Origin: Armatimonadota bacterium
Lineage (GTDB): Bacteria > Armatimonadota > UBA5829 > DTLH01
Length of the DNA: 64,000 nt
Reading direction: 5' to 3'
NCBI GenBank assembly: GCA_038207085.1
Contig: JBBRAE010000003.1
Span: forward strand, 108,383-172,382
Shown: positions 11,991-58,067 of the stretch, one piece after another
How the letters are laid out: each line of letters begins with the position of its first letter
How positions within the stretch are numbered: position 1 is the stretch's first letter
Notes under the pieces: model-generated
What the model was told of the DNA's origin: nothing
What the model saw: the letters and a program-made list of their open reading frames with translations, nothing else
Databases searched by the model: none
Program-made: the position numbers and the translations under genes

Positions 11991-12069
11991 AGCTCGCTTT
12001 ATTCGTAAAGCGAATAAAGCTCTCGCTAGCAAAGCATTATTCACGCTCCTCGTGAATAATGCAGGTTAG
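11991..12069. repeat. 79-bp double-hairpin dispersed repeat, copy 1
   Basis: GCTTTATTCG-n5-CGAATAAAGC plus GCATTATTCACG-n5-CGTGAATAATGC. 69/79 identical to 19839-19917 by manual alignment. Confidence 0.9.
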
Positions 12070-16686: not shown

Positions 16687-18041
16687 TTGAGCGCCTCCAC
16701 GACTTTTTCCATCTTCATCCCGCGCGAGCCCTTCACAAGCACCAAATCCCCAGACTGAACACGAGTCTTTAGCAGTTCAGCCGCATCGTCGCTCGTCTTG
16801 ACCTGCACGATCTCGCCCGTAAAGCCAGATGTATGCGCGCCTGTTGCGATCGCCTGACCGAGGTCGCCCACGGTCACGAGCACCGATATCCCGGACTCTG
16901 CCGCGACTTTGCCGACTGCGCGGTGCGTCGTCCCGGCGAAGTCACCGAGCTCGAGCATGTCGCCGAGCACTGCTATTCGACGCTGTGCGTCCATCGAGGC
17001 CAGGGTGCGAAGGGCGGCGTCCATCGAGGCGGGACTTGCGTTGTAGGTGTCGTCGATTATCCGGTAGCCGCCTGCAGTCTCGACCACGTTTGCGCGCTTG
17101 TCGCTTGCGGTCATCGACTCAAGCGCCGAAGCGATCTCTCCCGCCGTCATGCCGAAACACAGGCCGACCGATATTGCGGCAAGCGCGTTTGTGACCATAT
17201 GATCGCCGGGAAGCGGCAGATGAACGTCGAAACGCACGCCTCCGATGATGCCGGTGAAACTGGCGCAGCCGTCGGCGTCGATTGTCACGTTCTCCGCGCG
17301 CACATCGCCCGAGGCTCTGCCGTAGGATATTACCTGCGCGGCGCTTTTGTTCTTCAGTCGCTCAAAATACTTGTCATCGGCGTTCAAGACCGCAATGCCA
17401 TCGATTGGAAGCGCCTCGGCAAGCTCGCCCTTGGCGTCTGCGATGGCGTCCTGCGTCTCAAGCCGCTCGATGTGCGAGAGTCCGATGTTTGTTATCACAC
17501 CGATCTCGGGGTGGACGATATTGGCAAGCTCAGCAATCTCACCGGGCAGGCGCATCCCGACTTCCTGGACGAGTATCTGGTGTTCGTCGTTGAGTTGGAA
17601 GATCGTAAAAGGCACCCCGATTTCGTTGTTGAAGTTCCCCTCGTTCTTCAGCACGCAGAACTTGCTCCCGAGGACCGATGCGACCATCTCCTTGGTCGTC
17701 GTCTTACCGACGCTGCCGGTGATCGCGACGGAGCGCACGTTGAACGTGCGTCGATACCATGCCGCGAGGTTACCGAGCGCGACCAGAGTGTCATCGACCT
17801 TGATGATACTGCCGCGCGCATCGACTTCCCGCGACACGACGACTGCTCGAGCGCCCTTCTGAAAGGCAAGTGCGACGTAGTTGTGCCCGTCGCTGTTCTC
17901 GCCGACAAGTGCGAAGAACAGGTCGCCTTGTGCAATCGTGCGGGAGTCGGTGGAGATCCCCGTGATCTCGCCGGCAGACTCGCCCATAACCAGTTCGCCG
18001 CCCATCGCGGCTATAGCGTCAGTCAGTGATATACGTTTCAT
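16683..18041 (-). CDS. murF: UDP-MurNAc-tripeptide--D-Ala-D-Ala ligase
   Basis: ITGSVGKTTTKEM, NNEIGVP, DDTYNASP, GDMLELG and LVKGSRGM motifs. Confidence 0.96.
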   Translation of the reverse strand: MKRISLTDAIAAMGGELVMGESAGEITGISTDSRTIAQGDLFFALVGENSDGHNYVALAFQKGARAVVVSREVDARGSIIKVDDTLVALGNLAAWYRRTFNVRSVAITGSVGKTTTKEMVASVLGSKFCVLKNEGNFNNEIGVPFTIFQLNDEHQILVQEVGMRLPGEIAELANIVHPEIGVITNIGLSHIERLETQDAIADAKGELAEALPIDGIAVLNADDKYFERLKNKSAAQVISYGRASGDVRAENVTIDADGCASFTGIIGGVRFDVHLPLPGDHMVTNALAAISVGLCFGMTAGEIASALESMTASDKRANVVETAGGYRIIDDTYNASPASMDAALRTLASMDAQRRIAVLGDMLELGDFAGTTHRAVGKVAAESGISVLVTVGDLGQAIATGAHTSGFTGEIVQVKTSDDAAELLKTRVQSGDLVLVKGSRGMKMEKVVEALK

Positions 18042-18057
18042 AACAGTTGTCAGTTTG

Positions 18058-18202
18058 TCAGATCCCCGATCGTTCGGGAGATTGCTCCCGAATGCAAAGA
18101 ACAACGAGGACTTAAGTCCGGTGAGTCGACTTTAACCGACTGAGCGGGAGTGAACTCCCTTGCTGTTCTTTGTGTGCGCGATACACATCGCGCACGATCT
18201 GA
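18058..18202 (-). ncRNA. Candidate structured RNA (nested multibranch) between murE and murF
   Basis: Seven mutually compatible helices found by eye, two with G-U pairs on the minus strand. No family recognised. Confidence 0.5.
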
Positions 18203-18212
18203 TAGCTGAAAT

Positions 18213-19679
18213 CTATTTGACTCTCTTCCGTGCCTCAAGAACGTCCCTCGCGACCTCTCGGTCGTCGAAGTGGATCGTCTTGTCGGCGAAAATCTGATAG
18301 TTCTCGTGGCCCTTGCCGGCGATAACTACAATGTCGCCCTGCTCGGCTGAGCGTATCGCGTGGACAATGGCTTCGCGGCGGTCGACAATGACCTCGGGGC
18401 GGCTCTCAAGCGCGATTCCATCCAGAATATCTCGAATGATCGCCTCGGGCTCTTCTTTTCGGGGGTTGTCGCTTGTGACGATCACCATATCGGCGAGGTC
18501 GGAGGCGATCTTGCCCATTTTCGGTCGCTTGCCCCGGTCGCGGTTGCCTCCGCAGCCGAAGACGACTATCAAACGGTTCTTTGTCAGGCTCTTTGCGGTT
18601 CTGAGCACGTTTTCAAGGCCGTCCGGGCTGTGCGCGTAGTCTACTACCACGCCAAAGTCCTGACCGCAGTCGACCGATTCGAAGCGTCCGACGACTTTGG
18701 GGCTCATGGCGAGGCCCTGGACAATCGTTACGAGGTCGATACCAAGCCCAAGGCACGCCGCAGCAGCCGAAAGGCCGTTGTAGGCGTTGAAATAGCCGCC
18801 AACAGGCACATACGCCCGCTCGGAGACTCCCCTGTAGGTAATATCGAGCGATACGCCCGACTCGCTTACCTCGATCTCTGAACCCATAACATCGGCAGGA
18901 GAATTGATGCCGTAGGTGATGACCTCGCCAACGGTCGCGTCGATCACGGCCTGAGCGTAGGGGTCGTCGACGTTCACGGCGGCGACGAAACGCTTGCTTG
19001 AAAGCTTGGGATACTCTGAAAAAAGTGTGAGCTTGGTTGCAAAATAGTCTTCGAGCGTGCCGTGGAAATCGAGGTGGTCCTGGGTGAGGTTCGTAAAGAC
19101 ACCGCAGTCGAACTCACAGCCCGCTGTGCGCCCCTGCGCGAGCCCGTGGGAGGAGACCTCCATCGCGACGGCATCGACGCCACGGTCGACCATCTCGGCT
19201 AATACCTGCTGCAGGTCGGCTGACTCAGGGGTCGTGTGATCGGTCGGGAGGATCTCGTCTTCTATGCGAGTCCCGAGCGTTCCGACGAGCCCCGCCATGT
19301 TGCCCGCCGCGCGGAAGATGCTTTGGATCAGGTGGGTGGCGGTCGTCTTGCCGTTGGTGCCGGTGACGCCGACCATCATCATCTTGCGGGTGGGATAATT
19401 GTAAAACCTTGCGGCAAGCTGGGGAAGCGCCTCGCGTCCGTTTGGAACGACTACAAAAGGCACATCAGCATCAATCTCACGCTCGGATACGATGGCCGCA
19501 GCGCCATTTGCAACGGCGTCTGCGATGAACTCGTGTCCGTCAAATGTCCCCCCGCAGAACGCTACAAAGAGCATTCCCGGCGCAACTTTTCGGGAATCGT
19601 AAGCGACTCCCGTGATCTCCACATCGTCGCCGCTCAATCTGGAAGCCCCGAGGGTTTCTATCAAATAAGACAAATGCAT
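18213..19679 (-). CDS. murE: UDP-MurNAc-dipeptide--meso-DAP ligase
   Basis: GVTGTNGKTT, MEVSSH, DYAHSPD and DNPR (mDAP-type) motifs. Confidence 0.96.
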   Translation of the reverse strand: MHLSYLIETLGASRLSGDDVEITGVAYDSRKVAPGMLFVAFCGGTFDGHEFIADAVANGAAAIVSEREIDADVPFVVVPNGREALPQLAARFYNYPTRKMMMVGVTGTNGKTTATHLIQSIFRAAGNMAGLVGTLGTRIEDEILPTDHTTPESADLQQVLAEMVDRGVDAVAMEVSSHGLAQGRTAGCEFDCGVFTNLTQDHLDFHGTLEDYFATKLTLFSEYPKLSSKRFVAAVNVDDPYAQAVIDATVGEVITYGINSPADVMGSEIEVSESGVSLDITYRGVSERAYVPVGGYFNAYNGLSAAAACLGLGIDLVTIVQGLAMSPKVVGRFESVDCGQDFGVVVDYAHSPDGLENVLRTAKSLTKNRLIVVFGCGGNRDRGKRPKMGKIASDLADMVIVTSDNPRKEEPEAIIRDILDGIALESRPEVIVDRREAIVHAIRSAEQGDIVVIAGKGHENYQIFADKTIHFDDREVARDVLEARKRVK

Positions 19680-19838: not shown

Positions 19839-19917
19839 AGCCCGCTTTATTCGCTTCACGAATAAAGCTTTCGCTAACAAAGCATTATTCACGCTACTCG
19901 TGAATAATGCGGGTTAG
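19839..19917. repeat. 79-bp double-hairpin dispersed repeat, copy 2
   Basis: Same orientation and length as 11991-12069. Confidence 0.9.
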
Positions 19918-26412: not shown

Positions 26413-26912
26413 TGTATTACTCCAGTTGACCAAATCGCGTCGCCAAGGGCGCACTCATCCCCCGAGGAGTATTATCCGTCATCTGATCAATTACCGCAAG
26501 CCGGCGTGTTCTCAGTCCACCGGATAGACGCACAACGGTGTTGTGCCACAAAAGCGCAGACAATCCCAATCTGACCTCACCCGAACTGCAGAGCTTTTCC
26601 CGATATCATACCTGCACTGCGGGCTATCTTTAAAATACCCAGCAATTGGAGGTTTGTAACGGAGGCTAGTGCACGCTTAACCTGAATATTGTTCTTTGCC
26701 CAAGCACTTATGCCGCGTGCAGAGGCTTCGATGAAAGTCTCGCCAAATCCCAATATTCAGGTTAATCCGCCACTAGGGGCCGGAGTATGTTGGGCCGGAT
26801 TTGAAATCCGAGCCCGATTGTGTGACATTATCCAATCAACCGGCATCGCAGATGCCTATCCGACCCATGCGTCCCGGATCACAGATCCGGACGAACTCAC
26901 CCCGAAATATTG

Positions 26913-32205: not shown

Positions 32206-32337
32206 GATGGGCAGGGAGATTCCTCCCTGCCCCAAGTTTCGGGGGCATTTGCCCCCAACTACACTATCAAACAAGCAAGAATTGTTGGGGACGGATGTCC
32301 CTGAGACGGGCGCCGGGGAGGAATCTCCCCGGCGATC
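32206..32337. repeat. 54-bp inverted-repeat doublet, each arm with two hairpins
   Basis: 32206-32259 versus the reverse complement of 32284-32337 gives 40/54 identity, ungapped, with compensatory changes. Confidence 0.8.
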
Positions 32338-47692: not shown

Positions 47693-47759
47693 AATTTCAG
47701 ATTTGAGATTGCAGGTTGCAGATCAGTTTCCTGCAATCTGCAATTTGAAATCTGCAATT
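47693..47759. repeat. Heptamer-repeat hairpin
   Basis: ATTTCAG ATTTGAG ATTGCAG GTTGCAG, then CTGCAAT CTGCAAT TTGAAAT CTGCAAT. Confidence 0.85.
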
Positions 47760-57520: not shown

Positions 57521-57612
57521 AGTTCGCATCCTCTTGGGCATGGGTCATGGGTCACGGGTCCTGGAACCACAATCGGTTCCCTGTCCCTGGCCCATGCCCC
57601 AGCCCAGAAACC

Positions 57613-57981: not shown

Positions 57982-58067
57982 TCCAGTAACCTCAGTTCAG
58001 AGTTCAGAGTATTCGAGTTCAGAGTAGAGAGACAGAAGCGTAACACTCTGCACTCCGCACTCCGAAT

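Follow-up and report, generated by a model that had tools for sequence, protein, structure and literature searches.

A probable REP/REPIN-type repeat unit with a structured core between murE and murF of an Armatimonadota bacterium

Described REP systems and the murE-murF unit

The terms REP, REPIN and REPtron are used here as they are outlined in PMC3116915, PMC3733652 and PMC6006769. A RAYT gene bracketed by its own inverted REPs is the arrangement called a REPtron (PMC3733652, PMC6006769). The REPINs of P. fluorescens SBW25, as described by Bertels and Rainey (2011, PMC3116915), consist of two inverted REPs and a spacer which together form one larger fold in single-stranded DNA or mRNA; they are dispersed extragenically with no target duplication, and a single-copy RAYT is flanked by the same REPs. 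The E. coli REP/BIME sequences (Quentin et al. 2018, PMC6006769) are mosaics of REP subtypes in alternating orientation, and copies are found within operons near stop codons. In TIRtrons, whose enzymes are termed TIRYTs, the RAYT-like genes lie between inverted repeats that are longer and in part double-palindromic, and these repeats also make up moderately abundant families (Di Nocera et al. 2013, PMC3733652). A foot other than GT[AG]G is outlined for subclasses 2.6 and 3 of Quentin et al. (PMC6006769).

The window analyzed here is a stretch of 64,000 nucleotides from an Armatimonadota bacterium. The structure found between its murE and murF genes is read as one copy of a 132–133-nt non-autonomous repeat of the REP/REPIN (BIME-like) type, and we put the probability of this reading at about 0.85. 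The first-pass annotation had offered a non-autonomous structured insertion element as one explanation. This is supported and is refined here to a REP/REPIN-type repeat, the terminal hairpin of which is also found on both sides of a RAYT gene.

The window family resembles the SBW25 REPINs, as outlined above, in its two inverted REPs and spacer, its single larger fold, its extragenic dispersal, its flanked single-copy RAYT and its lack of target duplication. It differs from them in having a GATC foot and not a GTAG foot, unlike REP stems, a spacer of three hairpins closed by a stem, and 28 loci as compared with hundreds (PMC3116915). With the E. coli system, in the account of Quentin et al. (PMC6006769), it shares the mosaics of REP subtypes, the alternating orientation and the intra-operon copies near stop codons. 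It also shares with TIRtrons the RAYT-like gene between partly double-palindromic inverted repeats and the moderate abundance, and with subclasses 2.6 and 3 the atypical foot, however the feet given for the TIRtron and atypical REP classes are others, e.g. CnGA, and the organisms belong to other phyla (PMC3733652, PMC6006769). The word GATC is absent from the main text of PMC3733652, PMC6006769 and PMC12306157. A literature search gave no paper on REP elements in Armatimonadota/Armatimonadetes; the supplementary tables of the REP papers may list related types. Non-GTAG feet and RAYT-like genes with double-palindromic flanks are already described, and the window family adds the GATC foot and the elaborate core.

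As regards REPIN membership, a hairpin with a foot, extragenic dispersal, a flanked single-copy RAYT gene and the RAYT protein were all found; a GT[AG]G foot was not. The GATC foot, the unlike end stems, with which the unit departs from a strict REP doublet, and the 28 loci, a low copy number for a REPIN population, stand in contrast to typical REPINs. The core is structured and conserved far beyond what a REPIN spacer needs, and the REPIN reading leaves the core, the foot and the unlike stems without explanation.

Correia/NEMIS and ERIC elements are small, structured, non-coding intergenic MITEs that are often co-transcribed, and they display long terminal inverted repeats and target-site duplications. 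The window family has neither property. A classical MITE, i.e. a derivative of a DDE element, was considered and rejected on the same two grounds, as seen in 15 copies.

Fold, modules and dispersal of the repeat unit

The murE-murF spacer is 171 nt long and is read on the minus strand, from the murE stop codon TAG (window positions 18213..18215, minus strand) to the murF start codon ATG (18039..18041, minus strand). The MurF N-terminus aligns with those of relatives from residues 1–6, and murF has no obvious Shine-Dalgarno sequence. The outer stem of the fold begins 10 nt and the repeat unit 13 nt downstream of the murE stop codon. The spacer had been described as densely paired, and its minus-strand RNA indeed beats its dinucleotide shuffles: the minimum free energy (MFE) is −70.9 kcal/mol, the shuffle mean is −44.6 ± 4.2 kcal/mol (z −6.2), and 0 of 200 shuffles are as stable.

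All helices named in the first-pass annotation are present in the minus-strand MFE structure of the 171-nt spacer, and both its coordinates and the 16-nt distance from the outer stem to the murF ATG are correct. There is an outer 7-bp stem, UCAGAUC/GAUCUGA, followed by a 9-bp hairpin GUGCGCGAU-GUGU-AUCGCGCAC, an 11-bp stem CAAAGAACAGC/GUUGUUCUUUG that encloses three hairpins (GGGAG-UUCA-CUCCC, AGUCGG-UUAAAG-UCGACU and GGAC-UUAA-GUCC), and an 8-bp hairpin UUCGGGAG-CAAU-CUCCCGAA. The fold is self-closing and leaves few unpaired bases between the murE stop and the murF start. The plus strand is yet more stable (−80.4 kcal/mol, z −8.55), each helix being a local palindrome. The first-pass annotation had taken two minus-strand G-U pairs to favor a structure acting in the mRNA; the pairs are present, but the inference to the mRNA strand fails since the plus strand gives the better fold.

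The earlier statement that no known RNA consensus is recognizable holds for both Rfam 15 and ARAGORN, neither of which gave a relevant match. With Rfam 15 at permissive thresholds over positions 17700–18600 the sole match is a chance mir-1202 outside of the element (E-value = 1.1), and ARAGORN found no tRNA or tmRNA gene. No promoter-like or terminator-like sites were found on the minus strand within the element.

Heptamer-like units adjoin the element at window positions 18042–18057 and 18203–18212. Tandem units of this type (CTGACAA, CAGCTAA, GTCAGCC, GGGAACA, ATGCACA) often adjoin hairpin elements in this genome and in relatives; they are also present at window positions 47694–47758, 57535–57564 and 57994–58064 and in regions L112, L107 and L093. 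They recall the heptamer repeats of cyanobacteria.

The 132-nt repeat unit, REPIN-like in build, is at positions 18068..18199 (minus strand). It starts with GATCG and ends with CGATC, the boundaries being taken from 15 full copies and their flanks, and this 5-nt GATCG/CGATC is its only terminal inverted repeat. The 5′ REP module, REP1 (18174..18199, minus strand), has a GATC foot, a G, a 9-bp stem and a 4-nt loop, GATCGTGCGCGAT-GTGT-ATCGCGCAC. The core (18095..18172, minus strand) is made up, in the minus-strand fold, of the 11-bp stem and the three hairpins that it closes. The GGACTTAAGTCC hairpin is part of this core module, and we know of no counterpart to the module in the E. coli REP/BIME system. 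The 3′ REP module, REP6A (18068..18092, minus strand), has an 8-bp stem, a 4-nt loop, a C and the GATC foot, TTCGGGAG-CAAT-CTCCCGAA-CGATC. Its geometry is that of REP1 inverted and its stem sequence differs; the units of the window's own genome (G000) generally have such unlike end stems, inverted and of equal geometry, and a copy at C8:117037 is a hybrid with regard to the end hairpins. The GATC foot is invariant at the 5′ end of all 15 full copies and at the 3′ end of 14, the remaining copy ending differently.

The outer stem extends beyond the unit. It consists of the 5′ GATC of the unit plus three flanking bases (UCAGAUC, 18196–18202), which pair with GATCTGA, a chance sequence of the 3′ flank (GAUCUGA in the RNA, 18058..18064, minus strand). 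These flanks lie outside of the repeat unit and differ among copies.

The genome, 3.35 Mb in 83 contigs, was searched with the spacer. Many copies were found, and their BLAST identity to the window copy is 75 to 94%. A nhmmer profile of the family gives 76 rows at E ≤ 1, both strands counted; when overlaps are merged at E ≤ 1e-4, 28 loci remain, distributed over 16 contigs, and 15 of these loci are full length. A fuzzy pattern census of the genome shows REP1 at about 27 distinct places (49 matches over both strands) and REP6A with 15 pattern matches. By a crude longest-ORF call, all 28 loci lie between long open reading frames, and by such a crude call several copies are found 10–25 nt beyond a stop codon. 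The orientation relative to the flanking open reading frames is sense at 7, antisense at 10, convergent at 8 and divergent at 3 of the 28 loci; two crude ORF calls disagree at several loci, and the safe statement is that both orientations occur.

Alignment of the 15 full copies, each extended by 45 nt of flank at either end, shows an abrupt similarity that runs from GATCG to CGATC. The flanks are unrelated, and no direct repeat or target-site duplication was detected in those of the 15 full copies. Six of the 15 nonetheless form three pairs with common flanks that lie inside larger composite blocks with other repeats, and part of the spread may have come about by duplication of such blocks.

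A covariance model, R1, was built from the alignment of the 15 full copies (A1). With this model the unit at window positions 18068–18199 reaches 151.5 bits when read on the minus strand, as compared with 93.1 bits for the plus strand. In the 15 copies, standard pairs make up 90.4% of pair cells, as compared with 35.6–50.4% when the 3′ partners are slid by 1–3 columns, and 11 of the 43 pairs are altered on both sides. The end hairpins are paired in 97% (5′; three pairs altered on both sides) and 92.5% (3′; four pairs) of cells. The two small core hairpins are paired in about 98–99% of cells and are near-invariant, hence uninformative, and the middle core hairpin is paired in 80%, with three pairs altered on both sides. 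The long stem is paired in 82% of cells, its upper pairs being broken in most of the 15 copies. The window copy is among the better-paired ones. G-U cells number 31 and A-C cells 18 out of 645, many of them shared by descent, a difference that is too weak to call a strand preference. The energies of the individual full copies are similar on both strands, with RNA as well as DNA parameters.

A cross-genome alignment has 61 rows from 32 places, 29 of these being represented on both strands. In this alignment, which was fitted to R1 and is thus biased towards the model by construction, 90.3% of cells pair as compared with 32.5–51.3% for slid partners, and 42 of the 43 pairs are altered on both sides. 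The first-pass annotation had named homologues without compensatory changes as evidence that would speak against its structure; such changes are in fact plentiful. As they are strand-symmetric, they show selection for hairpin formation and not for mRNA function.

The window has other structured repeats. A double hairpin of 79 nt, with a short stem around it, is present at 19839–19917 and 11991–12069 and belongs to a second, far more abundant family, with 302 BLAST HSPs that fall into about 190 genomic coordinate bins. Two of its copies are in the dcw cluster, one of these directly upstream of murE, and a further copy is found within the 3′ coding end of a RAYT paralogue (C18:53310-53831), where the reading frame apparently continues to its normal end. 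An element at 32206–32337 (plus strand) has the same build as the murE-murF unit with other hairpins, i.e. a GATG 5′ foot, a GATC 3′ foot and the inverted loops ATTC/GAAT. The R1 score of this element is 44.2 bits, and there are about eight related places in the genome. A weaker R1 match (18.2 bits) is at 26761–26896.

RAYT genes, related units and the murE-murF junction

A six-frame search of the genome with the Pfam Y1_Tnp model shows four places. One is a 178 amino acid open reading frame at G000:C23:43330-43866, which reaches 100.4 bits with the NF047646 model, 'REP-associated tyrosine transposase' (cut-off 80). Its Pfam Y1_Tnp score is marginally above threshold (23.2, cut-off 23), and it falls below the cut-off of the IS200 equivalog model (20.6 bits, cut-off 55). 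A miniature element derived from IS200/IS605 (PATE) was rejected on the basis of this IS200 score (20.6 bits vs 55) and of the single copy of the enzyme gene. The HUH (IMPTHLHLV) and DYIHNNP motifs of the C23 protein align with those of E. coli TnpA-REP, PDB 4er8 (Messing et al. 2012, PMC3479197). In this and in the location of the gene between inverted REPs it resembles the E. coli REPtron tnpA-REP (yafM) as outlined in PMC6006769; unlike a member of the E. coli system, it has a weak similarity to 4er8 (E-value = 0.035) and the tetranucleotide differs.

The C23 RAYT is bracketed by inverted, identical 26-mers, GATCGTGCGCGATATTCATCGCGCAC, which are REP1 with the loop ATTC. Inward of each 26-mer is GAAACAGAAGAA or TTCTTTTTC, corresponding to the halves of the long stem, and R1 scores the two flanks as family copies (60.9 and 53.0 bits). 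The gene is single copy, its nearest paralogue in the genome being 45% identical, and by the genome pattern census no other gene is flanked by a REP1-type hairpin. An intact hairpin of the 3′ type (REP6A) was not found beside any RAYT of the genome.

The C23 cassette is also bracketed by a 30-bp direct repeat (positions 1249–1278 and 2053–2082 of region L051, on the same contig of G000), which duplicates the last codons and the stop of the gene upstream of the RAYT. A half hairpin, AGTGCGCGATATGTGT, is located between the left 30-bp repeat and the left GATC. To our knowledge, such a duplication is not expected of typical REPtrons. Contig C5 has a RAYT-like gene of 187 aa with HUH and Y motifs (region L050, G000:C5:69548-72883), and on both sides of it are near-identical GTAG-footed, REPIN-like elements of about 125–130 nt in direct orientation, with the same following bases. 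Further RAYT-like sequences are found on C18 and on C44, the latter matching in two pieces. At least two RAYT/repeat systems are thus present in the genome.

The way in which the unit may spread can be outlined by analogy with E. coli TnpA-REP and the IS200/IS605 enzymes, in part from general knowledge of their mechanism. The C23 RAYT would recognize the hairpin, in its folded state and together with the tetranucleotide foot, on single-stranded DNA, to which it could gain access for instance at replication forks. It would cut and rejoin at the foot, and a unit bounded by inverted feet would be copied or moved without target duplication.

Relatives were represented by 40 genomes, none of the same genus. 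BLAST with the unit matched none of the 40, however R1 at E ≤ 0.01 gives matches in 14 of them and is multi-copy in several (G004, 18; G006, 16; G007, 18; G027, 14; G038, 14). G038 has only the class in common with the window's organism and its copies have about 69% G+C, yet every helix is kept through compensatory change and the copies retain the initial GAU, GGACUcAAGUCC and the terminal CGAUC. The GGACUnAAGUCC core hairpin is invariant in the copies of the window's own genome and is kept in the class-level relatives. The units of G004, G007 and G027 are shorter, 75–98 nt, with the order GATC-hairpin-GAAACAGAA-(one hairpin or none)-TTCTGTTTC-hairpin-GATC, and the three-hairpin core therefore represents an elaboration of a simpler inverted-REP element. 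In these three genomes and in G006 the two unit ends are alike. An array in G038 consists of four 129-nt homologous elements placed head to tail with gaps of 65–135 nt (L040 835–1629, G038:C1).

The association with RAYT genes is seen in some of the relatives. In G006 the RAYT orthologue (62% identity) is accompanied on either side by similar hairpins and by the GAAACAGAA / TTCTGTTTC halves, and the homologue in G038 (37% identity) is located between inverted GATC-footed hairpins of a different stem sequence. Among 20 RAYT loci examined, a clear inverted GATC pair is found at two (G000 and G038) and a one-sided GATC hairpin at G006 and perhaps G036; the remaining loci, mostly of other RAYT clades, have none adjoining. 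A RAYT match is present in 13 of the 14 R1-positive relatives and in 11 of the 26 R1-negative ones, a comparison in which kin are non-independent and paralogous clades are mixed.

A metagenome scan with a looser pattern of the superfamily gave 28 places, one of them with the full 132-nt build, and the exact REP1-plus-stem pattern gave 0 stretches. The single match to the core motif in the contig pattern scan, from Parapedobacter, is taken as chance (R1 11.4 bits, E-value = 0.37).

The murE-murF gap could be measured in 18 of 20 relatives and is 171 nt in the window's own genome. It is −28 to 21 nt in 10 of the 18, including four of the five relatives of the same family. The 132-nt unit is absent from the junction in all five same-family relatives, as judged by BLAST and by inspection of the spacer. 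The tight junction in four of these five indicates that the window element is an insertion. In the other eight of the 18 the gap is 72–392 nt and is filled with unrelated hairpin-rich sequence (junctions L075-L093); the inserts of G006 and G008 include the hairpin type that flanks the G006 RAYT. It would appear that the junction has been hit repeatedly and independently, and a permissive landing place fits these sequences better than a conserved regulator.

As to consequences for the host, the murE-murF copy would be carried as a passenger by the dcw transcript. The hairpins of this copy might, as an incidental effect, slow 3′-to-5′ decay of the murE mRNA or disturb the coupling of murE and murF, and any such effect on the mRNA would be a by-product and not the reason for the presence of the element. 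E. coli REPs are described as stabilizing upstream mRNA and as lowering translation only if their distance to the stop codon is below 16 nt (PMC12306157). By analogy an effect on murE is possible, the first stem being 10 nt past the murE stop.

Alternative readings and significance

Departures from the simple REPIN reading concern the core and the foot. The core may be the working part of the element, with the GGACUnAAGUCC hairpin acting as an RNA module or as a place where the RAYT or some protein of the host could dock, and the GATC foot may tie cutting to methylation or replication. This proposal starts from what the REPIN reading leaves aside; we regard it as unlikely. GATC is also a site of the Dam/MutH/MboI type. 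In the genome its observed/expected ratio is 0.95, i.e. it is neither avoided nor enriched, and homologues of D12-class methyltransferases are present. A link between the foot and methylation is pure speculation.

A mobile repeat may also have been put to secondary use by the host at this location, as a barrier to decay, as a damper of murE translation, or as a closed fold that brings the murE stop and the murF start close together. The first stem 10 nt after the murE stop would fit such a use, as would the self-closed fold with its few unpaired bases between stop and start. The insertion also broke a junction at which, in 10 of 18 relatives, the two genes overlap or are closely spaced, and yet murF has no obvious Shine-Dalgarno sequence. 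However, the unrelated inserts at the same junction in other relatives fit a permissive site better than a selected one, and secondary use is judged distinctly unlikely.

The repeat or MITE could have been spread by an agent other than a RAYT, i.e. by a classical DDE transposase or an IS200/IS605 TnpA, or it could owe its spread to recombination and segmental duplication alone. In favor of this, three pairs of copies have common flanks, hairpins of the 3′ type lack a RAYT of their own, and the genome contains several further repeat families as well as three or more additional RAYT-like genes. Such an agent is nevertheless very improbable in our view. There is no target-site duplication, the terminal inverted repeat is limited to the 5-nt GATCG/CGATC, and the sole gene flanked by the family hairpin is a RAYT that fails the IS200 model (20.6 vs 55).

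The first-pass annotation's other proposal was a novel RNA for cis-regulation or processing of the dcw transcript, which could be thought of as an attenuator, an RNase site or a ribozyme that sets murF relative to murE. It can draw on the strong fold (z −6.2), the two G-U pairs on the mRNA strand and a sense orientation, with the structure extending from 10–13 nt past the murE stop to 16 nt short of the murF ATG. It is largely refuted by dispersal and hardly credible, since the same unit is found at 27 other loci beside unrelated genes (28 intergenic loci in all) in mixed orientations, is absent from the junction in five of five same-family relatives, folds better on the plus strand, lacks an Rfam match, and carries no promoter- or terminator-like site on its minus strand.

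With the REP/REPIN reading, a candidate for a new riboswitch or ribozyme is removed, and the strong fold would derive from a selfish or domesticated DNA repeat and not from selection on the dcw mRNA. The RAYT-flanked, GATC-footed family could serve to study how a RAYT reads its foot and hairpin. From the murE-murF copy it could be learned how two essential and normally coupled genes tolerate a structured insert of 132 nt between them. If the core does prove to be a working part, the family would represent a distinct, GATC-tagged REPIN class of the Armatimonadota, controlled in a way that has not been described for REPINs, and its closed fold would let copies occupy essential operons such as dcw without uncoupling the neighboring genes.
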